Below are positions 1,603 to 47,559 of a DNA stretch of 64,000 nt, piece after piece. Source of the DNA: a virus. The stretch spans positions 1-64,000 of IMG/VR virus record IMGVR_UViG_3300046167_000921. One strand, written 5' to 3'. A program made the translations under genes and the position numbers. The notes below the pieces were generated by a model. That model ran no database searches. It saw nothing but the letters and a program-made list of their open reading frames with translations, and was not told the origin of the DNA. The first letter of the stretch is position 1, and each line of letters begins with the position of its first letter.

Positions 1603-2436
1603 ATGAACAACGAGACCAGAGAACTAGAGATTCGGGTTGCCCGATTAGAAAAGCAGGCCTTCGTCAAGAGTGTTAGAGATTTCTTGGAAAAGGCGGTAGA
1701 GTTTGTCCCTCAAACAGGAAGGCTTCTTGGCGGTGCTCGGGAGTTAGCGAGGTTAGTTCTGAGCACGCTAAAGATCCTTTACGCGGAGTTCAACCTTCTT
1801 GTTCGGAAGAACAAAAGTAAGATCTTGAAGTACTTAGAGATGAGCTTTAAAGAGATAATGGAGAATGCTTTCCAGCCTTTTGTCTCCGTGAAGAACCCCC
1901 CTAGAATGAAAAAGTGGAACTCTCGTAACTTGCTGGGTTCTACCTTTGAGTTTAAAGACAAGACTTACACCTTGAAGGCTCTGTTAAAGCACGATGCTGT
2001 AACAGGGCAGGGTGCGTACAACTCATACAATGATTGGGTCAAAGAGTACGGTATCTCACTTGACTATGCACTCGGCATTTACCCGAAGCAAGGGTCTGAT
2101 GCAGAGAAGAGAGCATTGCGTTGGGGTGCTAAGACACTGAAGAGAAGCAACAAGCTATTCTACCGCTTCTTAAACATTTGGTTGAAGATGTCTGCTCAAA
2201 CAGGTCTAGTGGCGGGTTTATTCGCGGGTATGGTCACAATGGGGCTTATCTGGTCTACTAAGGCAGTTGTGAAATGGGTGTTCGATAAGTTCAACAACAA
2301 GGTAGAGGATAGCCTATCTGAGTTTGAGGGCGAGGCGAGTAACTTGCTCTTTGACCCAAACAAGACCGCTTCTTCCAATCGCCTCTCGCACATGGGCAAG
2401 CTAACCATAATTTTTGAGGTCGCCTACTCTTCTTGA
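1603..2436 (+). CDS. Leader-tagged protein with C-terminal hydrophobic hairpin (putative packaged/ejected protein)
   Basis: N-term ELEIRVARLEKQA; WVKEYG motif; hydrophobic GLVAGLFAGMVTMGLIW; C-term KTAS. Confidence 0.7.
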   Translation: MNNETRELEIRVARLEKQAFVKSVRDFLEKAVEFVPQTGRLLGGARELARLVLSTLKILYAEFNLLVRKNKSKILKYLEMSFKEIMENAFQPFVSVKNPPRMKKWNSRNLLGSTFEFKDKTYTLKALLKHDAVTGQGAYNSYNDWVKEYGISLDYALGIYPKQGSDAEKRALRWGAKTLKRSNKLFYRFLNIWLKMSAQTGLVAGLFAGMVTMGLIWSTKAVVKWVFDKFNNKVEDSLSEFEGEASNLLFDPNKTASSNRLSHMGKLTIIFEVAYSS

Positions 2437-2492
2437 ATCGTTTGTTATTATATCTCCTTCTTTGAGCATCACATATTACTAGGGGGATAAAA

Positions 2493-2816
2493 ATGTCGAG
2501 TGAAGACAACCAGAAAAACTTACTAGAGATAACGTTCAAGGTATTGAGCTCATTGATCATACCTTTCGGTATTTACATCGTAAGTATGAGCACAGAGCAG
2601 AAGTTGATAGAACAGAAGGTTCAGGTTCAGCAAGAGAGGATAGAAGAGCTTCGGCTCAAAGTTAAAGAACTCAACAAGAGTGTAGCTGAAGGTTGGAGTA
2701 ATATTAAGCTTAACACCCAAGAAGTTAGGCAAATGAGAGAGATGATCTCAGAACAATCTCAGATGACCCGAGAGGTTTACGAGTATGTTCTGAGACAACA
2801 AGGAAGGGGTAATTGA
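2493..2816 (+). CDS. Single-TM coiled-coil membrane protein
   Basis: TM VLSSLIIPFGIYIVSM followed by a Q/E/K heptad coiled coil; GGGG SD. Confidence 0.7.
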   Translation: MSSEDNQKNLLEITFKVLSSLIIPFGIYIVSMSTEQKLIEQKVQVQQERIEELRLKVKELNKSVAEGWSNIKLNTQEVRQMREMISEQSQMTREVYEYVLRQQGRGN

Positions 2817-2817
2817 G

Positions 2818-3331: not shown

Positions 3332-3426
3332 AAAAACTCAAAGTAAAATCTGACCCCCTGATCTCCTTTGATAATAGAGGCATTCAAAAGAGATCGAATA
3401 ATGGACAACAGATTTTACGAGGTAAT

Positions 3427-3855: not shown

Positions 3856-3893
3856 GAGTATAGATTGATCGTCGGCATTTTAGATGTCCCCCA

Positions 3894-3935: not shown

Positions 3936-3976
3936 TTTATATTGCTGTCAAATAGCAAATAACAAGGAGACTATTC

Positions 3977-7874: not shown

Positions 7875-8669
7875 ATGAGACAGCTAACCGCGAATCTATT
7901 TCAAGACTACTTTCAAGAACAAGGGGTAGACTACCTCTCACTTGACCGTAAATCCCAGAGAAGGCTTGAGAGTAAGCACTCAAAGAAGTTCTTAAAGTGG
8001 AATATAAAGCGAAAGATAGAGTTGGCTTTAGAGAAGAAAGGGCCTCTAAATAAGCTGAAGAGTAGGATAGACCTCTATCTAGACAAGTTACGATTCCACC
8101 CAAACATAGCTCCTGACCTACTATCTAAGCTAGAAGAAAATCTCAGTTATGAGGTTTTATCTGTCTTCGGTAAAGAGATAGAAGATGCGACTTCGGGGCC
8201 TGTCTTCTCCCACAAGGATAACTACAGGAAGCTAAGAAGCACCATAAGTAAAAATTATGGGTGGATGAATATAAAAGATTTGCCTACTCTTGACTCAGAG
8301 TTGGAAAAGAAGTTTAAGCCTCTTTTCCTCATACAAGAGAAAGAAGTAAGGCATCTGGGCAGGATTGTAAGAAAGCTTGCGGATCAATCTGCAAGGATTC
8401 CACCTGTCAATGTCAGAGGCTTAGAGGCTCTTGCCAAAGAAGTAGGCTCTTTACAAGCTCAACCTAAATATGTCGAAAACTATGGCAAGGTTCTCAAGGG
8501 GATTCAAGATCAGATCGAGTCTAAGTATGCGGTGCATGGTAAAGACCACAAGTATCTGGAGAAGCAATTCAAGATGGCTAAAAGGGCTTCGCAGATCCGC
8601 GTAGCCTCTCAGATGAACCGAGAGCTTCAGAGAGAGATCAAAGCTCTCAAGAGAGACCTCAACAAGTAA
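7875..8669 (+). CDS. Protein carrying the shared C-terminal module (divergent copy) and an MRQLTA start
   Basis: C-term LEALAKEVGSLQAQPKY...KRASQIRVASQMNRELQREIKALKRDLNK. Confidence 0.85.
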   Translation: MRQLTANLFQDYFQEQGVDYLSLDRKSQRRLESKHSKKFLKWNIKRKIELALEKKGPLNKLKSRIDLYLDKLRFHPNIAPDLLSKLEENLSYEVLSVFGKEIEDATSGPVFSHKDNYRKLRSTISKNYGWMNIKDLPTLDSELEKKFKPLFLIQEKEVRHLGRIVRKLADQSARIPPVNVRGLEALAKEVGSLQAQPKYVENYGKVLKGIQDQIESKYAVHGKDHKYLEKQFKMAKRASQIRVASQMNRELQREIKALKRDLNK

Positions 8670-8687: not shown

Positions 8688-9137
8688 ATGAATAGTTTTG
8701 AAAAAAAAGAAATAGAAGCCGAGCTTAAGCTACTCGATCAAGACGTGAAAGAGGCAGAGAAAACTCAGAACGTAATGGAACTCAAGGTGATCCTCAGAAC
8801 TATCACAGAGCTTAAGCGAGATCTGCCGAGAGGAGATAGAACAAGATTGAGGGCATATGTTAGAGCAATTGTAAGGATTGAAGGTCTCATTGATTCCGTC
8901 AATGAGAGGCTTGAGGAAAGAAAATCTTTCATAAAGGAAATGAAACCACATATCAAGAAACTTGAAAGATTTAGTACTATGATTAAGTACCGCAAAGCCG
9001 CAGTGGAACGATGGCAAGAGAGAGTGGAGGAGCTTCTTGCGGACGGTATTGAAGATGAACGTACAACTAAAACATTAAATAGTTTTAAAAGTCTTCTCTG
9101 GCATAAGATCGACTTTTTTGAGCGTCGGGGTTTTTGA
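8688..9137 (+). CDS. Hypothetical helical protein inserted in the array
   Basis: AAGGAG SD; 149-aa charged helical ORF. Confidence 0.75.
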   Translation: MNSFEKKEIEAELKLLDQDVKEAEKTQNVMELKVILRTITELKRDLPRGDRTRLRAYVRAIVRIEGLIDSVNERLEERKSFIKEMKPHIKKLERFSTMIKYRKAAVERWQERVEELLADGIEDERTTKTLNSFKSLLWHKIDFFERRGF

Positions 9138-9221
9138 TCGAAAAGCATCAGGGGCTTTTTTGTTTATATATAGGTGTCCTTGTGGAGATGTGACAATAGA
9201 GATACATGAAATCAACTAAGG

Positions 9222-10157
9222 ATGAAAACAATGGCTAACCCAAACGACTTAAAAAGAGTCCTCGATGGATCATATGTTCCCAGAGCGGATCTCACAAATG
9301 CGGATCTCAGAAATGCGGATCTCAGGGATGCGGGTCTCTGGGATGCGGATCTATCAGGTGCGGATCTCAACAATGCGAAACTCAAGGATGCGAGTCTTGA
9401 ACGTGCGTATCTTATAGATGCGAAACTCAAAGGTGCGGATCTCAGGGATGCGGGTCTCTGGGATGCGGATCTGACAGGTGCGGATCTCAGCAAAGCGGAT
9501 CTCAGAAATGCGTGGCTTTTGGAAGCTAATCTCACGGGTGCGGATCTGACGGGTGCGAAGCTTGGAAGAGCGATCCTTACTAATGCGGAACTCATAAATG
9601 CGAAACTTGAACGTGCTAACTTAAGTAAAGCGAATCTCATTGAGGCGGATCTCAGAAAAGCTAAACTCAGAGGTGCGATTCTTACTAATGCGGATCTTTC
9701 AGGTGCGGATCTCAATCTTGCGGATCTTGAAGGTGCGGATCTGACAGGTGCGGATCTGACAGGTGCGGATCTGACAGGTGCGAAAGGTATACCTCTGTCC
9801 ATCTCTGATAAATTTCCCCACAAAGGAGAGACGGTAGAGGAAAAAGCCCGAAGAGAGACAATCCAAGACATCACACGTCGCGTCTCCAGAGCTAAGAAAG
9901 ACAAGGAGCTGGAAGCTCTCGCTCAAGAAGTGGGTTCTCTACAAGCTCAACCTGATTATGTTAAAGAGTACAAGAAAGTCCTCGAAGACCTGCAAGCTGA
10001 AATCGAGGAGAAGTATTCTGTTTTAGGTAAGGGTCTTAATTATCTGAAGAAGCTCTTCAGCAGAGGTAAAAGGGCTTCGCAGATCCGCGTAGCTAGTGAG
10101 ATGAATAGAGAAATCCAGAGAGAGATTAAAGCTCTGAAGAGAGATCTCGACAAGTAA
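9222..10157 (+). CDS. Pentapeptide-repeat protein plus shared C-terminal module (likely start at 9231, MANP)
   Basis: Long A(D/N/K)Lxx repeat run followed by the ARRETIQDI...KRDLDK module. Confidence 0.92.
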   Translation: MKTMANPNDLKRVLDGSYVPRADLTNADLRNADLRDAGLWDADLSGADLNNAKLKDASLERAYLIDAKLKGADLRDAGLWDADLTGADLSKADLRNAWLLEANLTGADLTGAKLGRAILTNAELINAKLERANLSKANLIEADLRKAKLRGAILTNADLSGADLNLADLEGADLTGADLTGADLTGAKGIPLSISDKFPHKGETVEEKARRETIQDITRRVSRAKKDKELEALAQEVGSLQAQPDYVKEYKKVLEDLQAEIEEKYSVLGKGLNYLKKLFSRGKRASQIRVASEMNREIQREIKALKRDLDK

Positions 10158-10182
10158 GATATCGCCGTGATCCTATTTAAGA

Positions 10183-10216
10183 AGCCCTGCTCCCCATTCG
10201 GGGGGTGGGGCTTTTT
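10183..10216 (+). terminator. Terminator fused to a TTTATATAGG promoter-like element
   Basis: AGCCCTGCTCCCC-attc-GGGGGGTGGGGCT-TTTTGTTTATATAGG. Confidence 0.85.
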
Positions 10217-10295
10217 GTTTATATAGGTGTCCTTGTAGAGTATTGATAATAGAGACAACAGTAGAAACAAGACAACTAAGAAGGAGGTAAGCCAC

Positions 10296-11384
10296 ATGGC
10301 GACATACACATATGAAGACCTACACCCCAGAAACAATTACTTTGTGGCCGAAGTATACGGTCACGTCCGAGTTGAAGACATTGACCGTTGGATGAGGACT
10401 GGGGTTTGGGCCGAGATGGACGAGATTTTGCATGAATTTGAGGTGTACAAAGAGGCAGAGGATTTCGTCCGAAGGACAAATGCAGAAGCAAAGAGCATCA
10501 TAGAGGATGTGGAGCGTAAGGGAGAAGAGAGTAAGCACGTTGAAGAGGAGGAGGACGACGAGGGCTATCCTACTTTCTATATAGAGTATGTTTTCGATCG
10601 AATTGATGAGAGAGAAGTCTCTGGGCTTGATGGTCACTTCTTTAGCGGTGACACGTTTAAGATCGGGAAAACCAAAGGGTATGAAAAAAATAATCTCAGA
10701 GGTAAGGAATTTAATAATTGCAAATTCATAGGAGGGGGTTTAGAGTTTGATGAGTGCAAGTTCTTCAACTGCACATTCAGTGACGTAAACTCCATTACTT
10801 TTTATTATTCTCGCTTTGAAGACTGTGACTTCACGCAGTCTTCAAATATCCTCTTAGATCCAAGAGGAGGTGAAGAAATCATAAGATGCAAGTTTGATGG
10901 GGCGAGACTCAAAGAGCACATAAAATATTATCTACTTAATTTATCTGGGACTTCGGGTTTTTCAGTAGAAGACACAGACCCTAAGGGAGACCGCAGAAGA
11001 AACCTTTCAGAGGAAATGCTAACGGTTGAAGAAATAGCGTCAATTAGAGAAGAGGAAGAGAGAGAAGAGGAAGCCCGAAGAGTGGCAATCCAAGACATCA
11101 CACGTCGCGTCTCCAGAGCTAAGAAAGACAAAGAGTTGGAAGCTCTCGCTCAAGAAGTGGGTGCTCTACAAGCCCAACCTCAGTATGTTAAAGAGTACAA
11201 GAAAGTCCTCAACGACCTCCAAGGGGAGATCGAGAAGAAGTATTCTGTTTTAGGTAAGGGTCTTAAGTATCTGAAGAGACTCTTCGGCAGAGGTAAAAGG
11301 GCATCACAGGTTCGCATTGCTTCTCAGATGAATAGAGAAATTCAGAGAGAGATCAAAGCTCTGAAGAGAGACCTTCGTAAGTAG
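10296..11384 (+). CDS. Acidic N-domain plus degenerate pentapeptide repeats plus shared C-terminal module
   Basis: NNCKFIGGGLEFDECKFFNCTFSDV...SRFEDCDF; module 11071-11384 nearly identical in DNA to 9844-10157; AAGGAGGT SD. Confidence 0.9.
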   Translation: MATYTYEDLHPRNNYFVAEVYGHVRVEDIDRWMRTGVWAEMDEILHEFEVYKEAEDFVRRTNAEAKSIIEDVERKGEESKHVEEEEDDEGYPTFYIEYVFDRIDEREVSGLDGHFFSGDTFKIGKTKGYEKNNLRGKEFNNCKFIGGGLEFDECKFFNCTFSDVNSITFYYSRFEDCDFTQSSNILLDPRGGEEIIRCKFDGARLKEHIKYYLLNLSGTSGFSVEDTDPKGDRRRNLSEEMLTVEEIASIREEEEREEEARRVAIQDITRRVSRAKKDKELEALAQEVGALQAQPQYVKEYKKVLNDLQGEIEKKYSVLGKGLKYLKRLFGRGKRASQVRIASQMNREIQREIKALKRDLRK

Positions 11385-11420
11385 CAGATCACTTATTTAG
11401 ATGCTGATCCTATTTAAGAA

Positions 11421-11458
11421 AGCCCCGCTTCCCTATCATTGGGAGGTGGGGCTTTTTT
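11421..11458 (+). terminator. Terminator fused to promoter-like element
   Basis: AGCCCCGCTTCCC-tatcatt-GGGAGGTGGGGCT-TTTTTGTTTATATATAGG. Confidence 0.85.
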
Positions 11459-11518
11459 GTTTATATATAGGTGTCCTTGTGGAGATGTGACAATAGAGAT
11501 ACATGAAATCAACTAAGG

Positions 11519-12454
11519 ATGAAAACAATGGCTAACCCAAAACACTTAGAAAGAGTCCTCGATGGATCATATGTTCCCAGAGCGGATCTCACAAATGCGG
11601 ATCTCAGAAATGCGGATCTCAGGGATGCGGGTCTCTGGGATGCGGATCTGACAGGTGCGGATCTCAACAATGCGAAACTCATTGGTGCGAGTCTTCAAGG
11701 TGCGTATCTTATAGATGCGAAACTCAAAGGTGCGAATCTTATAGATGCGAAACTCAGCAAAGCGAAACTCAGCAAAGCGAAACTCAGCAAAGCGAAACTC
11801 TGGGGTGCGAATCTTATAGGTGCGGATCTATCAGGTGCGGATCTGACAGATGCGAAGCTTGGAAGAGCGATCCTTACTAATGCGGAACTCATAAATGCGA
11901 AACTTGAACGTGCTAACTTAAGTAAAGCGGATCTCAGACGTGCGAATCTCCATCAGGCTAAACTTATAGGTGCTATTCTTACTAATGCGAATCTTGGCGG
12001 TGCGGATCTCAATCTTGCGGATCTTTCAGGTGCGGATCTGACAGATGCGAAACTCAATGGAGCGGATCTTCAAGGTGCGATAGGTATACCTCTGTCCATC
12101 TCTGATAGATTCCCCCACAAAGGAGAGACGGTAGAGGAAAAAGCCCGAAGAGAGACAATCCAAGATGTCACCAAACGTGTCTCCAAAGCTAAGAAAGACA
12201 AGGAGCTGGAAGCTCTCGCTCAAGAAGTGGGTTCTCTACAAGCTCAACCTGATTATGTTAAAGAGTACGGAAAAGTCCTCGAAGACCTGCAAACTGAAAT
12301 CGAGGAGAAGTATTCTGTTTTAGGTAAGGGTCTTAATTATCTGAAGAAGCTCTTCAGCAGAGGTAAAAGGGCTTCGCAGATCCGCGTAGCTAGTGAGATG
12401 AATAGAGAAATTCAGAGAGAGATCAGTGAGCTGAAGAGAGACCTCAACAAGTAA
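11519..12454 (+). CDS. Pentapeptide-repeat protein plus shared C-terminal module
   Basis: Paralogue of 9222; about 90 bp of upstream/start sequence identical to 9151-9242. Confidence 0.92.
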   Translation: MKTMANPKHLERVLDGSYVPRADLTNADLRNADLRDAGLWDADLTGADLNNAKLIGASLQGAYLIDAKLKGANLIDAKLSKAKLSKAKLSKAKLWGANLIGADLSGADLTDAKLGRAILTNAELINAKLERANLSKADLRRANLHQAKLIGAILTNANLGGADLNLADLSGADLTDAKLNGADLQGAIGIPLSISDRFPHKGETVEEKARRETIQDVTKRVSKAKKDKELEALAQEVGSLQAQPDYVKEYGKVLEDLQTEIEEKYSVLGKGLNYLKKLFSRGKRASQIRVASEMNREIQREISELKRDLNK

Positions 12455-12480
12455 GATATCGCAGTACTAGAGTTTAAGGA

Positions 12481-12517
12481 AGCCCTGCCCCCTATTATTG
12501 GGGGGTAGGGGTTTTTT
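12481..12517 (+). terminator. Terminator fused to promoter-like element
   Basis: AGCCCTGCCCCC-tattatt-GGGGGGTAGGGGT-TTTTTGTTTATATATAGG. Confidence 0.85.
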
Positions 12518-12577
12518 GTTTATATATAGGTGTCCTTGTGGAGAATTGATAATAGAGATACATGAAATCAACTAAGG

Positions 12578-13426
12578 ATGAAAACAATGGCTAACCCAAA
12601 CGACTTAAAAAGAGCCCTCTATGGAGATAAGGATCTTCACTACGCGGATCTTTCAGGTGCGAATCTTATAGATGCGAAACTATCGCGTGCGGATCTTGTA
12701 GGTGCGGATCTCAAAGATGCGAAACTATCAGGTGCGGATCTTGACGGTGCGTATCTCAATCATGCGGAACTTATAGGTGCGGATCTCTCTCATACTACAC
12801 TTACAGGTGCTCGGCTCAGGGATGCGTATCTCACAGGTGCGTATCTTATAGATGCGAAACTCATAGATGCGAATTTCAGTGATGCGAATCTCAGCAAAGC
12901 GGATCTCAGGGGTGCGGATTTCTGGGGTGCGATTCTTACTAATGCGATTCTCAAAGATGCGGATCTTGAAGGAGCAAAACTAGACGATGCGGATCTCACG
13001 GGTGCGGATCTGACAGGTGCGAAACTCAAGGGAGCGGATCTGACAGGTGCGAAAGGCATACCTCTGTCCATCTCTGATAAATTTCTCCACAAAGGGGAGA
13101 CGGTAGAGGAAAAAGCCCGAAGAGAGACAATCCAAGATGTCACCAAACGTGTCTCCAGAGCTAAGAAAGACAAGGAGCTGGAAGCTCTCGCTCAAGAAGT
13201 GGGATCTCTACAAGCTCAACCTGATTACGTTAGAGAGTATGAAAACATCCTCGACGACCTCCAAGGGGAGATCGAGAAGAAGTATTCTGTTTTAGGTAAG
13301 GGTCTTAATTATCTGAAGAAGCTCTTCAGCAGAGGTAAAAGGGCTTCGCAGATTCGCGTAGCTAGTGAGATGAACCGAGAGCTTCAGAGAGAGATTAAAG
13401 TTCTCAAGAGAGATCTCGACAAGTAA
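12578..13426 (+). CDS. Pentapeptide-repeat protein plus shared C-terminal module
   Basis: Paralogue of 9222/11519 with different repeat order and number. Confidence 0.92.
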   Translation: MKTMANPNDLKRALYGDKDLHYADLSGANLIDAKLSRADLVGADLKDAKLSGADLDGAYLNHAELIGADLSHTTLTGARLRDAYLTGAYLIDAKLIDANFSDANLSKADLRGADFWGAILTNAILKDADLEGAKLDDADLTGADLTGAKLKGADLTGAKGIPLSISDKFLHKGETVEEKARRETIQDVTKRVSRAKKDKELEALAQEVGSLQAQPDYVREYENILDDLQGEIEKKYSVLGKGLNYLKKLFSRGKRASQIRVASEMNRELQREIKVLKRDLDK

Positions 13427-15539: not shown

Positions 15540-16592
15540 ATGAGAAAAATATCAGCACAACAACGGATCGCTTTTTTAGAGCGTAGGATTGCACACCTTG
15601 AGCGTAATGCAAGTTTCACCTCCGATGTGACAGGACTTCTTAAGAGAATTTACAACCTCCCTAAGAACTTCGTCATGAATCTTGTGAACGCACTCAGAGA
15701 AGCGTTTGAGATGCTTGTCCGCCCTCTCTTCAAGAAGATGAAGATCATGGACGACCACTTAGGTGTTCTTCTTGCTATTCGTATCGCCCGTGCATTCAGT
15801 GGTCTCATTACAACCGCCGACGACCTCCCTCAAATTGTCAGCTTTGAGGCCAAGAAGCCTATGGATTCAATCTTCACAGGAGGCATCGCAGGAAAAAAGA
15901 AAGTCTCTCTTAAGAAGCTAGCAAACATGTACGACGGAGAGCAACAGAAGAGGATCAAGGCCGCGTACCTTTCTTGGCACAGTGATTTCAGCCATATCCT
16001 CAACCCTCCTACTTCTCAGAGAAAGCTAACCGAGATAGCTCTTGGCGGACTCAAGAGATATTCTAAGTTGGCGTATCGCCTCATCTCTGTAGCACTTCCT
16101 ATCATTGGAGGCACTCAGCTTGTCGCTACAGGTATTGTGTTTCAGCTTCTTGGAGTCATGGGTACTTACTTCTTTAAGGTAGGCGGCTATTCTGTGGTGA
16201 AGAGTGAAGTGATACCTAAATCAGTGACGCTCGAAATAGGCCCAACCAGGATAAACATTCCAAATCCCGATTTAAAACCTTATGTCAACGATACCCCAAC
16301 TATTTTTCAACCCCCTGAGACGATTGAGATAGAAGTACCAGGTGGGACGAAGACAGTAAACTATGATCAGGTTATCAACCATTCTGCTAACTTTGACGTG
16401 ATGGCAAAACCCTATACTGAGATACTCAAAGCTAATGCAGGGATCATGGTTCTTCTTCTCTCTGTACTTGAGAAGGTCATGTACCGCTGGGTTGTAAAGA
16501 CTGATGAGTTTGATGAGATGGCTAAGACCGCAAGCAAGTATCCAGCGGTTATTCACCTCACAAGAATGCTCAGGTCTGCGGCCTACGCATGA
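15540..16592 (+). CDS. Leader-tagged hydrophobic-hairpin protein (paralogue of 17155 and 1603)
   Basis: RIAFLERRIAHLERNAS leader; KAAYLSWHSDFS; hydrophobic helices; KTAS near the C-terminus. Confidence 0.8.
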   Translation: MRKISAQQRIAFLERRIAHLERNASFTSDVTGLLKRIYNLPKNFVMNLVNALREAFEMLVRPLFKKMKIMDDHLGVLLAIRIARAFSGLITTADDLPQIVSFEAKKPMDSIFTGGIAGKKKVSLKKLANMYDGEQQKRIKAAYLSWHSDFSHILNPPTSQRKLTEIALGGLKRYSKLAYRLISVALPIIGGTQLVATGIVFQLLGVMGTYFFKVGGYSVVKSEVIPKSVTLEIGPTRINIPNPDLKPYVNDTPTIFQPPETIEIEVPGGTKTVNYDQVINHSANFDVMAKPYTEILKANAGIMVLLLSVLEKVMYRWVVKTDEFDEMAKTASKYPAVIHLTRMLRSAAYA

Positions 16593-31095: not shown

Positions 31096-31170
31096 CCTTC
31101 TCCCTCTCAAACGTTATAGTCTTTAAATAATCAGAAGATAACTGACCCAATTAATGAAAGGATTTGTCCT

Positions 31171-32364: not shown

Positions 32365-35300
32365 ATGGCTATAGAAAATAGTTACCTACCACCAGGTGTT
32401 TACACAAGCACCGTATTTGGGAATCAAAACCAAAACCAAGCTCGACTGCAAGGCAGGGTGCCTACCTTAATCGGCACAGGTCGCCAGACCATCGAGAGCA
32501 AGGGCAGTCTCCTCGTAAGAGGCTCGTCTGCTGTGGTTGATCAACGGATCGTAGAAGAAGATCCATCAGGCAGAATGGTTGCAGGAGAGAATCCCGATGG
32601 GAGTTACACCTATCAGGACTTCGACGGCGAGACAAACCAACTTCAGGTCAGGAAATGGCCTATCGTCACGGGTGACGGGTCTGGGACTAACGCTACGGTT
32701 CCTTCTTCTGTTACCGTGAGCATCAACGGCATTAACACTGTCGTTCTCGCAGTTGATGGTGCTGAAGGAGTTCTTACTATCGCGGAAGCCCCTAAGCAAG
32801 GAGACGACGTAAGAGTTTCTTACTTCTTCAACCGCACGGACACTTTCGTAGAAGAGGAAAACCTTTCTAGTCAGGTGTCTCCTTTCGACACAGAACTTCT
32901 CGGAAGTAGTTCCCCCTTCGTGATCGACAATACCTCTAACACTCTTATCTTAACTGTAGATGGTGTGACAGGTGTTATCACACTCCCTAACGGAGCTCAG
33001 GGTGATCGAGCGAACTCCCTCCAGCGTGTCATCGCAACCATTAATGGTGCAGGGCTTGCTTCTCTCGAAGCAGACTCCTACAAAGACACGGAAGGTGGCG
33101 ACAACCTCATCCTGACAGCAGAGGGGTCGATCCTTGTAGGTAACGGCACAGCTAACACCACTATCGGTGTTTACTTGAACCAGACAGGCAATGAACGCAC
33201 CCGCACGTTCTTTACTCAGTATGGCCCTATTGTAGACGGAACAAACAGTGGAGTTATTACTACCTCCACTGACAATGTGACCGTTAGGGTTGACGGGGTA
33301 ATTGTAGCGGTTGAGTCTGTAGACGGTTCAACGAACGCTATCACCCTCGCACTCCCCCCTAAAGTAGGTACTGTCATTAGTGTTGACTACTACCACAATA
33401 CTTTCAGAGATCAGTTCGACTACGTGTCGGGTCGTGACATCACCTCCATCGACAGAGTTTCTCTTGTCGCATCAGGCGGTGGCTCAGCGGCCTTGTTTGT
33501 CGAAGACGTGGACTTTGTACTCTCAGACGACAAGATTGTCTGGGGTACAGCGACAGTTGCCTCTGCGGGTGCAGTACAGAATGGCCAGACCCCTTTCGGC
33601 AACAACCAAGTGTCTCCAACTCTCCGAGATGAGAGAGCCTATCTTTTAGAGTGTTCTTCTGTAATTACGAATGCCGTCCCTCCTAGAGTCCTCCAAAACG
33701 TCTTTAAACTCCCCTTCCAGCCCGTTGACGGATCTGGTGCAGGGAAAGCCACTAACAGAGCTGATCTTGTCACAGTGAGGACAGGAGTCTCCCTCTCAGA
33801 CGCCCTTGTCAACCCTCTTGCAGTTGTGACTAAGGTTGACCCTCAGACTTCACAGGTAACTCTCGCCTCTGATATCCCTGCGAACCATAAGGTGTTTGCG
33901 AGCTTCTACTACTCCAATATTCAAGACAAGTTCGGAGATAAAGCGTATCGAGTCGAGGTTGAGTCTGCGGGAGCTTCTGGAGTTGGCACTTACTCTGTTA
34001 AGTCTTTAAACGAGACTCTTTATAACGTGACTCTTGAAGACAAAGGTACAGACCTTAGTGAAATCGCCTTGAACTTCCCTTCAGGGTCTGAGTCCATGTC
34101 AGGTGCTAGAGTTATAGGAGGCACCCCTGTGGCGGAGAATGTCACCGTTGAGCTTCGTAGTTACGACGAGACTCCTGCGATCTTCTTCACCGAAGGCTTC
34201 GGAGACTACTTCCTCGTCGAGGGTGCTTCAGACACTCTTGCTATTGAGGCAGACCTTCAGGCAATCACGATTGACTTCTCTGCCCCTATGGGTGCTGGTC
34301 GTAACGGTCACATTGCGACTCTTGTAAGTGACTTACTTACGTATGACGTTGCGAGCAACAACACTAACTACGGTGCGACAGCATTAACAAGAGCGGTCAC
34401 TCTCACTGTGGATGGCGTAACTCTCGCAGAAGCTTCTATTAACGGCGTAGGTGACGATGTTGAGACTTGGGTCGGTGCTATCAACACAGCAGCGAACGCT
34501 TCTGCACCTGTTTACACAGCCATGTCTAGCTTCTCTGCTTGGGAAGCGAAGGCAAATTCATATGCTGGCTTCAAGTTCCGTTTCGTCGGCGACTCGAATG
34601 GTGCTTCTGCCGTAGCCTCTGCCACGATTGGTGCGGCTGTTTACCTCAGCCCCGACGACCTCGCTAACGCTGTTGGCGTGGCGATTACTAATGCAATCAC
34701 CGCAGACATCGTTGGTGCAAACGCAGACTTTACAGGTCTTGATCTCAGTTGCTCTGCGGATAACACGGGCCGTTTAGTATTTAGTTTGGATTCTCTTCCA
34801 AACGCTAACGACTCATACGGATTTATTGAGTTCATCGCAGATACTGAAGATACGTTCCTCAGTATTGCAGGCGTAGACTTCGATACTCAGAACGCAACCA
34901 CGAATGGCAACGGCACTCAGACTAAGTTTGGTTTCCTCCCTGTCGCGGCACACTCACGCACCACCCTTACTTCAGGCGAGCTCCGTGACCGCTTGATTCT
35001 TAAAGGTAGGACTGTTATAGGTAACAAGTACTTCCCAACATCAGATCTAGGTGTATCTGTTGATCAGGGTGTGCGGGTCGAAGATGCTGGCCTCAGTGCT
35101 GGCGACTCCGCTGTTGCTTCAAGAAGATCTGTAGTTGATGCCCCAAGTGTCCTCCTTCGTTTGGGTTGGGGTGATGTAGACGCTCTTGGTATTCCTGCAA
35201 AGACACTGTACAGTGCTGGCAATGACCAGAATGACACTCTTGTTCTTGAGATTGACGGTAGTACTGTCACTATCAATTTATCAGATGCTACGGCTCAAGG

Positions 35301-37176
35301 TAATCTCACTTCAATTACAGATATCCTTGATGATGTAGTAATCGCGGTAGGTGTAAATGCCACTGCTCACATTGAGGGTGCGGGCATCCGTGTTATCAAT
35401 GCAAACTCTAACATTGATTCCTATATTAGAGTTGGTGCAGGTAACGGTAATTCATCTTTCGGTTTAACTGAGGGTGAGTCTGTTTCTTCTGTAGGTGTCA
35501 CCGCCCAAGCTTTGACCTCAGCTCTTATGAGTGATGTTGTTGCGAAGGCCTCTTTCGCAACTGCTCTCTTCTCTATTGAGCCAAGCACAGACGCAATCGC
35601 GGGTCACTACGCAGAGAAAGCTGTGTCTTACCTCCACGTAAACCAAACAGGTCGTAGTTTTGTTGGTTTCGAGAGTCTCTCAACTAGTACCAGCTCTATC
35701 CTTGAAGTTACAGGGGGTCGTGTTGCTACAACTAGAGGAAGTGGTACGAAGATCACCGTAGGCGACGGAGCTGTCGGAGAGAATGCGTATCAAGGGTTTG
35801 TGGTCACTTCCGATAACCCGAAGGGTTCGGGGTCAGCTAATGACTCACGCCTCAACGACGGTTCTGGCTCAGATGGTGTTGTAGGACAGACTTATATTGA
35901 TTCAGTAACAGGCCTCACCTTCTCCCTCCTCGCAAGAGAAGGTGGTTTGTCATACCCTACAGGTGTCAACGCAAGAGTTCTCTTCAGCGTATCCACTACC
36001 CTGACAACCGACGCTAATATTCCTGTGTCTCTCATACAAGGTGTTGAACTCACTGTGTCTAACACACTCAACACACAGGCAGGAGACATTGCTCTCGTAG
36101 AGACTTTTGTTAAGAGTGGTTCTGAGCCTTCTATAGGTCAGACCTACTATGTTGACTTCACCCGTGTTAGATCACTCTTTAACACTCGTACCTTCACCTC
36201 TCTCGGAGACGTGGTAGCCACCTATGGGCCTCTGAGTCCAGAGAACTCTTTGAGCTTGGGTGCTTACCTCGCGTTTGCTAATGGTGCTTCTGCAATTGCT
36301 TGTAGGCAGATCCCTCTCGCGAAGGGTCAGAGTATTGCTACCGAGGATCAAGTCATCTCGGCAATTTCTGGTGTTGAAGGTGAGATCACACCAGGTCTTT
36401 CACCTTCTGTGATTGTGCCTGTTTATCCTGCGACATCAGCAATCCTCTCCGCAATCTCTAACCATTGTGACATTCAGTCTTCACTTCGTTATCGTTCAGA
36501 GCGTCGTGCTGTTGTTGGCGTAAAACCTGGCACTCAGCCAAGAGAAGTTCAGCTTCTCGCACAAGCAACAGGAAACTCAAGAGTTTGCATTGTTTACCCT
36601 GACATCGCCACTCTTACTTTCATAAACGACGTGGGAGTCAGTCAGAGCTTCCTCGTCGGCGGTGAATATGTTGCGGTGGGTGTCGCTCTTGCTACAAGCA
36701 ACCCTAGTGTAGACAGTGCGACCCCTTGGACGGGTCGTGTAATCAATGGTCTTTCTTCACTTTCAAGAACTCTTGATGAGGTTGACGCGAACGCGACAGC
36801 TAAAGCGGGTGTGACTGTTATAAGTCAGAGAGCGGACGGTATCAAGGTCAGACATGGTTTGACCACAAACATGACTTCTACTCTCACTAAGACCCCTACG
36901 GTTATCCAGATCGCAGATGACGTTCAGATTCGATCTCGTAACCTCTTGAGTAGGTACATCGGTGTGAAGTACGTACCTCAGGTCATACAGCAGATTGAGG
37001 GTCGTTTGAACGCTTTCTTGAAGCAACTCGTCCGAGACCAGATCATCTCAACCTACACAGGCTTGAGTGTTCGTCGAGATCCCGAAGACCCAACCCAATT
37101 GAACGTGGAGGTCTTCTACAAGCCCGTGTACCCCCTCCTCTATATTCAATTCACCTTTACTCTTCAGGGTGGCTGA
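32365..37176 (+). CDS. Contractile tail sheath protein, unusually large (1603 aa)
   Basis: N-term YLPPGVYT; C-term sheath domain TTNMTSTLTKTPTVIQIADDV...VEVFYKPVYPLLYIQFTFTL; long beta-rich insertions. Confidence 0.88.
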   Translation: MAIENSYLPPGVYTSTVFGNQNQNQARLQGRVPTLIGTGRQTIESKGSLLVRGSSAVVDQRIVEEDPSGRMVAGENPDGSYTYQDFDGETNQLQVRKWPIVTGDGSGTNATVPSSVTVSINGINTVVLAVDGAEGVLTIAEAPKQGDDVRVSYFFNRTDTFVEEENLSSQVSPFDTELLGSSSPFVIDNTSNTLILTVDGVTGVITLPNGAQGDRANSLQRVIATINGAGLASLEADSYKDTEGGDNLILTAEGSILVGNGTANTTIGVYLNQTGNERTRTFFTQYGPIVDGTNSGVITTSTDNVTVRVDGVIVAVESVDGSTNAITLALPPKVGTVISVDYYHNTFRDQFDYVSGRDITSIDRVSLVASGGGSAALFVEDVDFVLSDDKIVWGTATVASAGAVQNGQTPFGNNQVSPTLRDERAYLLECSSVITNAVPPRVLQNVFKLPFQPVDGSGAGKATNRADLVTVRTGVSLSDALVNPLAVVTKVDPQTSQVTLASDIPANHKVFASFYYSNIQDKFGDKAYRVEVESAGASGVGTYSVKSLNETLYNVTLEDKGTDLSEIALNFPSGSESMSGARVIGGTPVAENVTVELRSYDETPAIFFTEGFGDYFLVEGASDTLAIEADLQAITIDFSAPMGAGRNGHIATLVSDLLTYDVASNNTNYGATALTRAVTLTVDGVTLAEASINGVGDDVETWVGAINTAANASAPVYTAMSSFSAWEAKANSYAGFKFRFVGDSNGASAVASATIGAAVYLSPDDLANAVGVAITNAITADIVGANADFTGLDLSCSADNTGRLVFSLDSLPNANDSYGFIEFIADTEDTFLSIAGVDFDTQNATTNGNGTQTKFGFLPVAAHSRTTLTSGELRDRLILKGRTVIGNKYFPTSDLGVSVDQGVRVEDAGLSAGDSAVASRRSVVDAPSVLLRLGWGDVDALGIPAKTLYSAGNDQNDTLVLEIDGSTVTINLSDATAQGNLTSITDILDDVVIAVGVNATAHIEGAGIRVINANSNIDSYIRVGAGNGNSSFGLTEGESVSSVGVTAQALTSALMSDVVAKASFATALFSIEPSTDAIAGHYAEKAVSYLHVNQTGRSFVGFESLSTSTSSILEVTGGRVATTRGSGTKITVGDGAVGENAYQGFVVTSDNPKGSGSANDSRLNDGSGSDGVVGQTYIDSVTGLTFSLLAREGGLSYPTGVNARVLFSVSTTLTTDANIPVSLIQGVELTVSNTLNTQAGDIALVETFVKSGSEPSIGQTYYVDFTRVRSLFNTRTFTSLGDVVATYGPLSPENSLSLGAYLAFANGASAIACRQIPLAKGQSIATEDQVISAISGVEGEITPGLSPSVIVPVYPATSAILSAISNHCDIQSSLRYRSERRAVVGVKPGTQPREVQLLAQATGNSRVCIVYPDIATLTFINDVGVSQSFLVGGEYVAVGVALATSNPSVDSATPWTGRVINGLSSLSRTLDEVDANATAKAGVTVISQRADGIKVRHGLTTNMTSTLTKTPTVIQIADDVQIRSRNLLSRYIGVKYVPQVIQQIEGRLNAFLKQLVRDQIISTYTGLSVRRDPEDPTQLNVEVFYKPVYPLLYIQFTFTLQGG

Positions 37177-37240: not shown

Positions 37241-38179
37241 ATGTATGACCATAAGATCCGAGAACTCCAAGGGAGGTTGCTTCGCTTAGAGCGAGTAGCT
37301 TCTCAGGGCGACGAGGGCAGGTTCTTTGACAACCCTCTGGTAAGGTCTGTCAGAGAGTTTGCCGAGTCGGAGGCGATCTCTAATGATCTTCAGGTATCAG
37401 AGAATGCTTCTGATACCTTAGATTCTGAGAAGTCAAAAGAGCTACTTAAAGCAGAATCAGTTTTCGCACCCCCAACTCCAGCAGAGACCCGAAAAAAGCC
37501 AGGTGGCGAAGAGTTTTCAACCCTGAATCAGTTTGTATTAGAGACTGAGGAGGGTGTGAGGATGCCCTCCCCCGAAAAAGCGGAGCAACCCCCTCAGTCT
37601 TTGGAGGAAGGTAAGCTGGATCTCAAGCAGAAAGCTGAGGATCGAGTGATAACCAGAAGTGAGAAGCTACGTGCTATAAGAGAAGTCATGAAAAAGAAGT
37701 CTAGCGGGGCTTGGCTTTTACGGCAAAGGTCACTCCAGAGAAGGAAAGAAGACAGTCGTTCTAATGGGAAACGTCGCCAAGACGATGAAGATGAGTTGAC
37801 GGACAGCCAGCGTGAGGTTCAGCGAGAGAAAAGGGACTATGAGAGGAGAAAGGAGAAAGAACAGAAAGAGAAAGAACAGAAAGAGAAAGCCAAAGAGGAA
37901 AGAAAGAAAAACTTAGATCAACGCAAGCAGGATCAAGTCAGTGCGAGAGCCCAAGCGAAGGAAAAGAAAATAAAGTCTTTAGAGCAACAGGCGAAAGGGT
38001 ACTCGAAAATGAAAGGAACCGAAAAAAGCCAATTTGTTAGAGTCGTGTACAAGCTACTCGACCGACAAGGCTCAAGTGGAGCGAAAGATGACCTGCAGTA
38101 TAAATTGAAGAAGACTAAAAACCCCGAAGAAAAAAGCCAAGAAATTATTCGAGCCCTCAACTCTCTACGAAAAGGATAG
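37241..38179 (+). CDS. Leader-tagged charged protein (probable head-associated)
   Basis: KIRELQGRLLRLERVAS leader; K/E-rich coiled-coil C-half. Confidence 0.75.
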   Translation: MYDHKIRELQGRLLRLERVASQGDEGRFFDNPLVRSVREFAESEAISNDLQVSENASDTLDSEKSKELLKAESVFAPPTPAETRKKPGGEEFSTLNQFVLETEEGVRMPSPEKAEQPPQSLEEGKLDLKQKAEDRVITRSEKLRAIREVMKKKSSGAWLLRQRSLQRRKEDSRSNGKRRQDDEDELTDSQREVQREKRDYERRKEKEQKEKEQKEKAKEERKKNLDQRKQDQVSARAQAKEKKIKSLEQQAKGYSKMKGTEKSQFVRVVYKLLDRQGSSGAKDDLQYKLKKTKNPEEKSQEIIRALNSLRKG

Positions 38180-44352: not shown

Positions 44353-45711
44353 ATGGCATTCTTACGATATGCAAGAGCTAATGTAGTAACTCCTCAACTC
44401 GGGGGTTCTGAATGGGACAAGATCAGGGTAGCTTCTGGTTCAAAGCAGATGAATAGGTCTCTTAAAGCAAAGGCGGAAGATATACTTGGTGAAGAATTCA
44501 CCCCTGACAAGTATCTACTTACCCATGCAACTATCGTCTGTTCCGTAGATGCCATCACACCCCCAAACACCAAAACAGGGTCTATTAAAGAGGGTGGCGT
44601 TACTATCAATAGAAAGTACGCTGACTTTCGTATTTCTAAAGACACAGATAAGTTCATCAATAACAACCTAGACTCATGGTCAAGAGGTGTTATTAAGAAG
44701 TCGTACCAGACCTTCATCGGAGCTCATAACTTTGTCGAACACGTTCAGGTTGAAGAGCTGTCTAAAGGTAAGATTATAGACGCTGTACTTAGAGACATAG
44801 GCGACTCTTTATATGTAGACATCCTTGTGGCAACAAACAAGAAGCACAAAGACCTCATTGAGCAGATTGTCTCTGGCAAAATGAATTCTATGTCAATGGG
44901 TTGCTCTGTGGACTTTACTATCTGCACTAAATGTGGACACGTAGCCGCGGATGAGCCTGAAATGTGCTCTCACGTCAAATACGAGAAGGGTAACACCTTC
45001 TTCGATGAACAAGGTGTGAAACACAGGGTTGCAGAGCTATGTGGACACGAAGATATCGGGGAAACTGCAGGTGTCACTTTCATTGAAGCTTCTTGGGTTG
45101 CAACTCCTGCTTTCCCTGGTGCGGTGGCAAGGAATACTTTAGATATTCCTGAAAAGTGGCTGGAAAAAAAAGCTAGCCTTGTAACCGCCGCTTTCGGAGT
45201 GGACGAAGATAGCGAAGAAGGCGAAGGGGGTCAGGATAAAGCTCCCTCAGATGGCCTCCTAAAAAAGCTAGATGCTGTCTACGAAGAAGCTGTTATCGAC
45301 AGATTCAAGAAGAAGCTGGAAACTGAGATCAAGAAAGAAAAGTCTCAGTTAGCTCTACACCCCCCCATCAGCAAATCTACCGTTGAGCAGAACGACACCA
45401 TCATTAAAGAAGGTGGCTCTATCAACACGGAAGATTATCTCAAAGCATTAGGCCTCTCCATAAGAACTGCTAATTCAGAGCAAGAGGCGGTCTTTAACAT
45501 AGCTTTGGTCAACAACCACTTCGGTGTCAATGTACCCTCTAGTGTCTATAAGGTCGCTAGTAAGATAGGGAACGCCGAAAACTATTCCTCTGTGGAAGAC
45601 TTTCTGAAGAAAGCTTCAGAGGTGTATGGTAAAACACTATCAGAAAAAGAGTCTTTCGCTCTTATTCGAATCTCAAAACTTTTATCCCTTAACAGTTTCG
45701 GGCAGAGATAA
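44353..45711 (+). CDS. Prohead (capsid maturation) serine protease with Cys/His cluster
   Basis: HNFVEH, SMSMGC, IEASWVATPAF; position upstream of scaffold and capsid genes. Confidence 0.8.
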   Translation: MAFLRYARANVVTPQLGGSEWDKIRVASGSKQMNRSLKAKAEDILGEEFTPDKYLLTHATIVCSVDAITPPNTKTGSIKEGGVTINRKYADFRISKDTDKFINNNLDSWSRGVIKKSYQTFIGAHNFVEHVQVEELSKGKIIDAVLRDIGDSLYVDILVATNKKHKDLIEQIVSGKMNSMSMGCSVDFTICTKCGHVAADEPEMCSHVKYEKGNTFFDEQGVKHRVAELCGHEDIGETAGVTFIEASWVATPAFPGAVARNTLDIPEKWLEKKASLVTAAFGVDEDSEEGEGGQDKAPSDGLLKKLDAVYEEAVIDRFKKKLETEIKKEKSQLALHPPISKSTVEQNDTIIKEGGSINTEDYLKALGLSIRTANSEQEAVFNIALVNNHFGVNVPSSVYKVASKIGNAENYSSVEDFLKKASEVYGKTLSEKESFALIRISKLLSLNSFGQR

Positions 45712-45729
45712 AGTCTTGCCCTTGAACCA

Positions 45730-47559
45730 ATGAAAGGAGTACCTATGTCTAGGTATACTCGTTCTAAGTCTCAGAGGTCTTCTTCTGCCCGAAGGAACCT
45801 CCGTTCACGCCGTGCTAACTCAGCTATCCCAGGTTATGACAACCTCGGCTGGGAAGATTTCGGCCACCCCGCTTCAGCAGACCAGCCTAGTCTTGAGGAC
45901 TATGGAATCGAATCAGATTTCGGTGAGGGTGTACGCAAAGGTCCTTACGGCGACAGTCCTGCACCAGCTTCTTACGGATGGGAGCCAGATCATCCCGCTT
46001 CAAGAAGTGCTAGCCTCCGTGACCGAAAGCTCCGTAAAGCTATGGAGCGTAAGGCTGCCAAGTGCATCAAGATTGCTGAGTCTCGTCTCGGCAAGTCTGC
46101 GTCTCAGCGTGAGATTGAAGACCTCGCACTCCGCTTCATGGATCTCCCAAATAAGGCGGTTAACACTCGCGTAGCTAGCCTCGACCACCATATGGGTATG
46201 GAAGATCTCGATGCAGATGAAGACGACATCATGGCAATGATGGACCACCATATGGGTATGGAAGACCATATGGGTATGGACGACCATATGGGCATGGAAG
46301 ATCTCGATGCAGATGAAGACGACATCATGGCAATGATGGACGATCATATGGGTATGGAAGACTTCGATGCTGATGAAGACGACATCATGGGCATGGAAGA
46401 CCATATGGGTATGGACGACCTCGATGCAGATGAAGACGACATCATGGCAATGATGGACGACCATATGGGTATGGAAGATCTCGATGCAGATGAAGACGAC
46501 ATCATGGCAATGATGGACGACCATATGGGTATGGAAGATCATATGGGTATGGACGACCATATGGGTATGGACGACCATATGGGTATGGAAGACTTCGATG
46601 CAGACGAGGACGACATCATGGCAATGATGGACGAACCTGTGGCACATGGCATCTTTGACGAGTATGACCTCGACATGGATGGGATGATCAGCCCAGAAGA
46701 GTTCGGAGGTTCAGCGGACGCTTTCAACGCTATGGACAGCGACCTCGACGGCTTCCTCTCTAGGGAAGAAGCTTCTGTCGGACTCGGTGACTCTTTTGGA
46801 GAAGAAGCCGCTGAAGTTCTCGCGGAGGAAGTGACTATGCTTAAAGCCGCGAATGCTCGCCTCTCACGTAAAGTCCGCAGTCTCTCTGTTCGCATGGCAT
46901 CTCAGGAAGAGGCTTCTGAAGAAGAAGCATCTGAAGAAGAAGCCGAAGAGAAGGAGACTTCAAAGAAGAAGGCAAGCACTTCTCGTCGTATTGCCCGCAT
47001 CGAGAGACTTGCTAATGCACTCTCTGATTACATGGCTGAGATGGAGCGTCAGGCATCTGAGGAAGAGGCTTCTGAAGAAGAAGCATCTGAGGAAGAAGCT
47101 GAAGAGAAAGAGACTTCAAAGAAGAAGGCTAAGGAAGAAGAGGCATCTGAGGAAGAGGCTTCTGAAGAAGAAGCCGAAGAGAAGGAGACTTCAAAGAAGG
47201 CTTACCACTCAATGGCTGACGTTCTCGCCGACCTTGAGATAGAAGCAGACGAAGAAGAGATCGTCGCAGAAGATCCTATGGGTCTTGATGCTTCAGACCT
47301 TGGCATGATCGACCCTAAGCTTGCTTCAATCTTCACCGCTTCTGACGAAGATGACGAAGATGACGAAGATGCAGACGAGACAGAAGATGGCGATAGCGAG
47401 GAGAAGGAGACTTCAAAGAAGGCCTCTTACCGACCAAGCAAGAGAACTCGTCAAGCTTCTGTGAAGACACTCGGCAACATCAGCCGTGAGGCATCTAGCT
47501 CAGACGAGCTCTCTAAGCTCTGGGAATCAGCCCCAGACGTTTCTAAGTTCTTCGGGTGA
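45730..47559 (+). CDS. Scaffolding/prohead core protein (likely start 45745) with repeats and two EF-hand loops
   Basis: Between protease and capsid genes; very acidic; many [KR]xAS sites; C-term SDELSKLWESAPDVSKFFG. Confidence 0.75.
   Translation: MKGVPMSRYTRSKSQRSSSARRNLRSRRANSAIPGYDNLGWEDFGHPASADQPSLEDYGIESDFGEGVRKGPYGDSPAPASYGWEPDHPASRSASLRDRKLRKAMERKAAKCIKIAESRLGKSASQREIEDLALRFMDLPNKAVNTRVASLDHHMGMEDLDADEDDIMAMMDHHMGMEDHMGMDDHMGMEDLDADEDDIMAMMDDHMGMEDFDADEDDIMGMEDHMGMDDLDADEDDIMAMMDDHMGMEDLDADEDDIMAMMDDHMGMEDHMGMDDHMGMDDHMGMEDFDADEDDIMAMMDEPVAHGIFDEYDLDMDGMISPEEFGGSADAFNAMDSDLDGFLSREEASVGLGDSFGEEAAEVLAEEVTMLKAANARLSRKVRSLSVRMASQEEASEEEASEEEAEEKETSKKKASTSRRIARIERLANALSDYMAEMERQASEEEASEEEASEEEAEEKETSKKKAKEEEASEEEASEEEAEEKETSKKAYHSMADVLADLEIEADEEEIVAEDPMGLDASDLGMIDPKLASIFTASDEDDEDDEDADETEDGDSEEKETSKKASYRPSKRTRQASVKTLGNISREASSSDELSKLWESAPDVSKFFG
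46183..46632 (+). repeat. Coding tandem repeats: 11 x HMGM and 6 x DADEDDIM units
   Basis: GACCATATGGGTATG and GATGCAGATGAAGACGACATCATG units. Confidence 0.9.
46900..47200 (+). repeat. Three coding repeats EEASEEEASEEEAEEKETSKK
   Basis: Direct from translation. Confidence 0.85.

Follow-up and report, generated by a model that had tools for sequence, protein, structure and literature searches.

Introduction

Why should one phage place the same short peptide in front of otherwise unrelated proteins, and why should this peptide end in [KR]-x-A, a motif that recurs throughout its putative head scaffold? The question is raised by a 64,000-nucleotide stretch of virus DNA (positions 1 to 64,000 of IMG/VR record IMGVR_UViG_3300046167_000921; hereafter the window), which is the start of a 177,493-base virus contig. 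A first-pass annotation of the window had named 13 open reading frames (ORFs) that carry an N-terminal leader or a C-terminal tag bounded by [KR]-x-A, and had proposed that these tags dock cargo on the scaffold and are cut by the prohead protease. All 13 ORFs exist and bear the motifs ascribed to them. The analysis described here points to a capsid-targeting propeptide system that would be cut at [KR]xA↓S by a protease of the gp21/assemblin fold. We give this reading, which joins the cut site to the function of the leader, a probability of roughly one half.

The source of the contig is an uncultured, marine jumbo myophage. The contig is probably incomplete, because the close relatives measure 296–316 kb. 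Among database records, those nearest to it belong to an uncultured 485 kb phage (LR745208.1) and a soil isolate, Tunturiibacter phage Tunturi 5. These two (L019 and L018, respectively), together with the window contig and the relatives L004 and L006, form the five-phage set used below. In all five, the protease, the scaffold, a small ORF and the capsid protein follow one another in this order.

Results

The [KR]xAS motif is concentrated in head and tagged proteins

Motif statistics were computed over the 206 predicted proteins of the contig, and expected counts were taken from within-protein shuffles that keep the composition of each protein. Across the contig, [KR]xAS is observed 95 times against 36.2 expected (z 9.7), whereas the control motifs [KR]xSA, SAx[KR] and [KR]xA[TD] are flat. 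A position scan revealed that Lys or Arg at P3 (Arg 44 versus 15, Lys 46 versus 21), Ala at P1 and Ser at P1´ are each specific. The codons used at the sites follow background proportions, so the motif acts at the amino-acid level, which rules out a DNA-level motif.

The excess is strongest in six head-module proteins, which contain 24 sites where 2.9 are expected (z 12, 8-fold); this value does not depend on how the tags are defined. A comparison of tagged with other proteins, which the first-pass annotation had proposed as a check, came out in its favor. The N-tagged proteins carry 13 sites versus 2.7 expected, or 8 versus 2.7 (about threefold) when sites inside the leaders are excluded, and the C-module proteins carry 16 versus 2.1. 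The remaining 180 proteins are at background (37 versus 27.6, p ~0.06). The bias of the sites towards protein termini is modest: the C-terminal 30 residues are enriched with p 0.015, and the N-terminal 30 residues are not significant.

To compare [KR]xAS with other motifs, all gapped and contiguous triplets were ranked in the ten protease and scaffold proteins of the five phages. [KR]xAS (53 versus 5.7) is the top non-repeat motif, just behind the HMGMDD-type repeat of the window scaffold. In the same ten proteins, the T4-type motif [LI]xE is not enriched (46 versus 59) and the phiKZ-type motif [SAG]xE is barely enriched (z 2.1). The [KR]xAS excess extends to the head regions of LR745208.1 (z 6.8) and Tunturi 5 (z 3.4), whose proteases are 43% and 39% identical to that of the window. 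It is not clear in the head modules of phage G and Catera, which have remotely related proteases, and the motif is therefore not general to head modules. The head module of Mycobacterium phage Catera is enriched in [KR]xAA instead (18 versus 6.3), which hints that Ala at P1 may predate Ser at P1´.

A further protein rich in the motif adjoins the large terminase gene (contig 110048–111901, minus strand). This 766-aa protein of unassigned family (contig 113257–115557, minus strand) contains 6 [KR]xAS sites, as does its 614-aa homologue in LR745208.1 (4915–6759), and it is likely, judging from these sites, to be a heavily processed head protein.

The prohead protease is predicted to adopt the gp21/assemblin fold

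The head maturation protease, assigned through PHROGs (phrog_18299, E 1.7e-14), is encoded at 44353–45711 on the plus strand. It belongs to a family of more than 1,400 metagenomic members, none of which has been characterized, and a literature search found no cleavage sites for this family. Searches by tblastn recovered the head maturation protease of Tunturi 5 (39% identity) and the Rhodococcus E3 prohead protease; the protein has no Pfam hit, and a profile search against PDB sequences gave no real hit. Among cultured phages, Tunturi 5 alone has a related protease together with a [KR]xAS-rich scaffold and a [KR]xAS-rich gp328. A model of residues 40–275 based on 90 relatives reached a pLDDT of 89.9 and was used in place of a full-length model (23-sequence alignment, pLDDT 51), which was discarded. 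VIA-align superimposes the domain model on T4 gp21 (5jbl_A) with Z 9.8 and an rmsd of 2.9 over 126 residues, and on the herpesvirus proteases of VZV (1vzv, Z 9.7), PRV (4v08, Z 9.2) and HSV-2 (Z 8.1). Foldseek likewise ranks T4 gp21 first and the herpesvirus proteases next, but weakly (E 7e-3). The modeled domain thus has the gp21/assemblin fold. His58, His130, Ser181, His207 and His232 are invariant in alignments of 23–90 relatives and may include the catalytic residues, and the protein has an inserted Cys/His cluster.

The protease contains four [KR]xAS sites, at residues 25, 272, 400 and 419. The catalytic domain spans residues ~40–265, and the motif indeed flanks it, as had been claimed. 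Relatives as distant as 47% identity retain the site at residue 25. Directly past the conserved domain, [KR]xA sites are found repeatedly in the otherwise variable linker, where P1´ drifts to Glu, Gln, Asp or Ala in distant members.

The scaffold carries conserved sites and a copy of the leader core

The next gene (45730–47559, plus strand) encodes an acidic, putative scaffold with 10 [KR]xAS sites, which bears out the claim that the scaffold is rich in the motif. There are 9 sites in the L004 scaffold and 7 in that of L006, several of them in invariant columns, and [KR]xAS sites are retained by related scaffolds and proteases even where protease identity has dropped to 39–43%. Each of the five scaffolds closes with a site and, behind it, a tail of 16–22 residues, which is near-invariant in four; in the window, this conserved tail has 21 residues (47494–47556) and directly follows the last site, REAS.

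Outside the leaders described below, the leader core occurs only once, at residues 420–428 of the scaffold (46987–47013). It lies three residues 3´ of a KKAS site, within a 27-residue stretch that has a site at each end. The scaffold of the 296 kb relative contains the same core, and that of L006 contains none. Because the core recurs in the scaffold alone, we propose that the leader may imitate a helix of the scaffold and in this way join the scaffold core.

The scaffold also contains an EF-hand (PF13202, E 1.8e-9, residues 308–325) and about 20 copies of a His/Met/Asp-rich repeat of the HMGMDD type, a composition that suggests metal binding. The same type of repeat is found at the end of a second scaffold-like protein (contig 155864–157291, minus strand).

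A 19–24 residue leader ends exactly at E-[KR]-x-A

The N-terminal leader has the core LExRIAxLE[KR]xA and is 19–24 residues long. A strict pattern matches 10 proteins of the contig, in 9 of them at residues 8–21, and its nine-residue core R[IVL]Ax[LIV]E[KR]xA is observed 10 times against 0.01 expected in shuffled proteins. Six of the matches lie in the window, all on the plus strand. Three belong to paralogues whose relationship persists after removal of the leader (family A): ORF 1603–2436, with a 19-aa leader (1603–1659) that ends in EKQA followed by Phe; ORF 15540–16592, with 24 residues (15540–15611) that end in ERNA followed by Ser; and ORF 17155–18063, with 21 residues (17155–17217) that end in EKEA followed by Gly. 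The canonical leader is exactly 24 residues long and opens ORFs 26513–27112 (26513–26584) and 31171–31605 (31171–31242). A divergent leader of 20 residues (37241–37300), ending in ERVA followed by Ser, opens ORF 37241–38179, which encodes a protein rich in Lys, Glu and Arg and lies just 3´ of the tail-sheath gene (32365–37176, PHROGs). The seventh ORF that had been listed with this tag, 19183–20016 (plus strand), is a doubtful member: its weakly leader-like N-terminus has Gly in place of Lys/Arg and Glu in place of the final Ala, and so lacks the [KR]xA end.

To define the boundary, 24 leaders from the contig, the 296 kb relative and metagenomic proteins were aligned on the final Ala. All of them terminate in E-[KR]-x-A. 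Column entropy is 0–1 bit at most leader positions and rises to ~3 bits from the first residue past [KR]xA, where sequence similarity ceases. The proposed boundary between tag and body is thus confirmed to the residue. The hydrophobic residues of the leader are spaced 3-4-3, which is typical of coiled coils.

The bodies behind the leader are diverse. The bodies of 26513 and of contig ORFs 85891 and 143999 are loosely related, and 31171, 37241 and contig ORF 167033 have the leader alone in common. With relatives included, BLAST sorts 35 tagged bodies into 18 clusters; by sequence comparison, therefore, the claim that unrelated bodies bear the tag holds for the N-terminal type. Orthologues of 31171 keep the leader near-unchanged while the body drifts. 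The tagged bodies are net basic, and the 1603, 15540 and 17155 proteins carry a KTAS motif 17–21 residues before their C-termini, as had been noted (19 residues in 15540; in 17155, KTAS is accompanied by RVAS). Pfam and PHROGs searches of the tagged proteins returned nothing informative, nor did an ESM Atlas search with 15540.

The leader is maintained as a peptide. Its first ten codons are near-identical among the copies in the contig. The 296 kb relative uses other codons for the same residues (AGT for Ser where the contig has TCA, and TTA or CTA for Leu) and has His instead of Gln at leader position 3 in all copies. The use of different synonymous codons in different genomes indicates selection on the leader peptide and rules out a constraint at the RNA level; near-identical codons within a genome, together with genome-specific variants, indicate concerted evolution within each genome by recombination or conversion. 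Other IMG/VR contigs also have several leader copies per genome, often clustered.

Several loci resemble this arrangement without conforming to it. The LR745208.1 phage (485 kb) does not use the leader of the window, but two of its proteins with different bodies (22839–23243 and 30466–31521) have in common an N-terminal leader of ~29 residues that ends in KEA followed by Gly or Ala. The leader type thus seems to be clade-specific, with the [KR]xA end retained. In the window, ORFs 20188–21177 and 21170–22228 (both minus strand), which are paralogues with a common N-terminus, and ORF 52237–52719 (plus strand) have R-[VL]-A-S within their first 20 residues, like the site at protease residue 25, and are possible extra substrates with a third type of leader. 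Between two leader-bearing genes, ORF 18136–19128 (plus strand) encodes an actin-fold protein that matches Pfam Volactin over its full length (PF25216, E 1.1e-74); the name of this family derives from the Haloferax actin.

The C-terminal tag is a portable module with a double site

The second tag type had been described as a short C-terminal tag in six ORFs. Its double site, KRAS followed after 2–3 residues by R-x-AS (KRAS-Q-I/V-R-x-AS), is present in all six and in contig ORFs 143297 and 144487. However, the similarity extends over 82–113 residues, and the element is therefore a portable module of 85–110 residues rather than a short tag. Five window copies are terminal, all on the plus strand, and in each exactly 20 residues follow the last site: 8421–8669 in ORF 7875–8669 (double site 8580–8609), 9819–10157 in ORF 9222–10157 (10068–10097), 11043–11384 in ORF 10296–11384 (11295–11324), 12116–12454 in ORF 11519–12454 (12365–12394) and 13085–13426 in ORF 12578–13426 (13337–13366). 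The sixth copy (30355–30696, plus strand; double site 30640–30669) is internal to ORF 29722–31095, where a short leader-like helix, ending in KEA and then Gly, comes next and a further domain of ~130 residues after it, a polyprotein-like layout.

The bodies that carry the module are mostly related, and the claim of unrelated bodies fails to this extent for the C-terminal type. ORFs 9222, 11519, 12578 and contig 144487 are full-length pentapeptide-repeat paralogues (9222–10157 matches PF00805 with E 6e-51). ORF 10296 has only weak Pfam and PHROGs hits, 7875 and 143297 have other bodies, and in two further contigs the module is attached to a non-pentapeptide protein. The pentapeptide-repeat proteins could be DNA mimics. 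Pentapeptide-repeat bodies occur with either tag type, as contig ORF 91038–92111 (minus strand) illustrates: a linker piece of the C-module precedes an internal N-terminal leader at residue 179 and then pentapeptide repeats. This ORF is either a polyprotein-like fusion or two genes with a mis-called start.

Two further features concern the DNA around these genes. Before each pentapeptide-repeat cassette (intervals 9100–9220, 10160–10295, 11390–11518 and 12460–12577), there is a T-run, then a TTTATATA(TA)GG-like motif, and a conserved leader about 60 nt long; from their sequence, these flanks look like repeated promoter/terminator units, and a similar TTCTTTTAT motif lies 5´ of several leader-bearing genes. 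ORF 7875, which has the C-terminal module at its other end, opens with the first six residues of the canonical leader, in the same codons (7875–7892, plus strand), and then diverges. Its start looks like a recombination scar that joins both cassette types.

Discussion

A proposed pathway of cutting, loading and release

The observations can be arranged into a pathway of three steps. In the first, the protease would cut after the Ala of [KR]-x-A↓S, shred the scaffold, release its own catalytic domain by cuts on either side, and clip C-terminal tails of ~20 residues from the scaffold, the family A proteins and the C-module proteins. From the distribution of the motif we consider this step, with the processing of scaffold, protease and tails, probable. 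In the second step, the amphipathic leader of 19–24 residues that ends in E-[KR]-x-A would act as a capsid-targeting propeptide: it would join the scaffold core during shell formation, probably by coiled-coil pairing, and be removed at its last Ala, leaving the body within the head. The probability of about one half stated at the outset applies to these two steps jointly. The C-terminal module of the pentapeptide family is a second, larger portable unit, whose double site would free a 20-residue tail. The docking of the leader on the scaffold and cutting at [KR]xA, as the first-pass annotation had it, fits the motif excess, the conserved sites, the exact end of the leader, the predicted protease fold and the copy of the core in the scaffold.

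The third step is speculative. The bodies, among them basic proteins, pentapeptide-repeat proteins and proteins that carry membrane-like helices, would stay with the DNA, and some may reach the host. We regard the complete series of three steps, delivery included, as tentative and on balance doubtful. The same reserve applies to its most general form, in which a widespread clade of uncultured marine jumbo phages would combine a protease of herpesvirus-like A↓S specificity with a universal 24-residue leader that mimics a scaffold helix and loads any protein, release the bodies by cleavage, and inject a fast-evolving arsenal, shuffled by recombination, of at least 18 body families, DNA mimics and membrane-active proteins among them.

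Several results weigh against the proposed propeptide system. The residue after the final Ala is Ser in only 8 of the 24 aligned leaders and Phe, Ile, Gly, Met, Leu, His or Thr in the others; since Ser is required for the genome-wide excess, it may be that many leaders are cut poorly or stay in place. About half of the tagged bodies in the contig contain 1–3 membrane-like hydrophobic segments, as might also be expected of ordinary membrane proteins that begin with a coiled coil. The major capsid protein (48296–49174, plus strand; HK97 fold family, phrog_2522) has no [KR]xAS, although its invariant KLAAS at residues 26–30 is a possible variant site; the portal (contig 102174–103850, minus strand) has a sole site, 17 residues before its C-terminus; and a helicase (contig 67487) has 4 sites (p ~0.02). 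The site counts come partly from paralogues and homologues and hence are not independent. k-mer and loose-motif scans gave no clear class of late promoter common to tagged and head genes. A literature search found no virion proteomics or N-terminal data for this clade, so that packaging and cleavage are predictions from sequence.

Alternative explanations

The alternative that survives best accepts [KR]xA↓S as the cut site of head maturation but takes the leader to be a coiled-coil assembly helix that is not removed, either as a permanent or transient part of the scaffold core or inner body or as an oligomerizer of membrane proteins, with no delivery of cargo. The P1´ residues other than Ser in two thirds of the leaders and the membrane-like helices in half of the bodies speak for it, and the 3-4-3 spacing and the core that leader and scaffold have in common would be expected of such a helix as well. 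A structural helix, however, does not need to stop exactly at E-[KR]-x-A together with the similarity. Moreover, the leader is far better kept than the bodies, and the family A proteins also have conserved sites ~20 residues from their C-termini. We therefore think this explanation unlikely, though it deserves to be taken seriously.

Gene shuffling alone is considerably less probable. Here, recent recombination and duplication within the genome would have spread the 5´ cassette and the 3´ module among morons that have no common capsid function, and the tagged proteins would have inherited their [KR]xAS excess with the cassettes. This would account for the near-identity of the first 10 codons within a genome and for the genome-specific variants, as well as for the tandem array of C-module genes with its promoter-like and terminator-like flanks and for the six-residue stump in ORF 7875. 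But the excess is strongest in the scaffold and protease, where it is independent of any cassette, and the N-tagged proteins remain about threefold enriched outside their leaders (8 versus 2.7). Furthermore, genomes with proteases only 67% identical differ synonymously in the leader while its protein sequence is conserved.

It is very improbable that [KR]xAS is a phosphorylation site or another recognition motif rather than a protease site. Lys/Arg at position –3 of an invariant Ser does resemble R-x-x-S kinase sites, and the genome-wide excess strictly requires the Ser. Such a role leaves unexplained the strict Ala at –1 and the concentration of sites in the scaffold and protease and at domain and leader boundaries; the enzyme at the locus, in addition, is a protease of the gp21/assemblin fold, and assemblins cut A↓S (no kinase search was made). 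Chance in Lys/Ala/Ser-rich proteins, for which the low complexity of the scaffold might speak, is refuted by the composition-keeping shuffles (z 9.7 genome-wide, z 12 in the head module) and the flat permuted controls, and its probability is negligible.

Implications

If the proposed propeptide system is real, it would supply the first cut-site specificity for a large family of uncharacterized jumbo-phage head proteases (>1,400 relatives), and a phage enzyme with Ala↓Ser specificity would bear on the link between phages and herpesviruses. The leader with its [KR]xA end would provide a sequence rule for predicting packaged, and possibly injected, proteins from metagenomes. Mimicry of the scaffold would suggest how address tags originate, and foreign proteins could be brought into large capsids with the leader as a compact tag.

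Comparison with known systems

The loading of accessory proteins into heads and their delivery with the DNA recalls the antirestriction (Dar) proteins of phage P1 and other injected proteins, although delivery is speculative here and no sequence relation to these proteins was tested or found.

Herpesvirus assemblins cut between Ala and Ser, at an R site that follows the catalytic domain and at an M site, where the cut detaches the scaffold from the shell. To our knowledge, Ala↓Ser specificity is otherwise known from these enzymes and not from phage enzymes of the gp21 type. The window protease resembles them in its modeled fold (Z 8.1–9.7), in its presumed Ala-Ser cut, and in a site just past the catalytic domain that corresponds in position to the R site. 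REAS, 21 residues before the conserved C-terminus of the scaffold, would correspond to the M site and has equivalents in L004, L006, L019 and L018. In contrast to the herpesvirus arrangement, the protease and scaffold are separate ORFs here (44353–45711 and 45730–47559) with no fusion, and P3 is Lys or Arg rather than Val, Leu or Ile; the likeness in specificity is drawn from motif statistics alone.

The phiKZ and SPN3US enzymes cut after Glu, at [SAG]xE, and in SPN3US the N-terminal propeptides are removed and the protease trims itself (PMC10052503). The phages of these two proteases (phiKZ gp175 and SPN3US gp245) are, like the one described here, jumbo myophages; N-terminal propeptides are lost from many of their head and ejection proteins, which often belong to paralogue families. 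Their cut after Glu differs from the one proposed here, where [SAG]xE is barely enriched. We know of no description of a single conserved leader on unrelated bodies in the propeptide systems of giant phages.

The closest parallel is provided by phage T4, in which a variety of internal proteins enter the head by way of leaders of 10–19 residues, the capsid-targeting sequences (CTS), that gp21 takes off by cutting after Glu at [LI]xE; Alt and gp21 itself have propeptides at both ends, and the CTS lets phages load varied proteins (PMC9026906). With this established precedent, the proposed system is not new in kind. As with T4 IPI-III and Alt, a short N-terminal leader stands on unrelated, mostly basic proteins and ends at what may be the protease motif, the predicted protease fold is the same (Z 9.8 to 5jbl), the gene set is variable and expandable, and some substrates would have propeptides at both ends. 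The differences are that the leader here is 19–24 residues long, is of the coiled-coil type, bears no similarity to the T4 CTS and copies a segment of the scaffold; that the proposed cut follows the Ala of [KR]xA↓S and not the Glu of an [LI]xE motif; and that the system here is known from sequence alone. As far as these comparisons reach, it would work like the CTS but is not homologous to it, and it is best read as a variant of the theme formed by the T4 CTS and the phiKZ propeptides, with a new leader and a putative, herpesvirus-like cut site.

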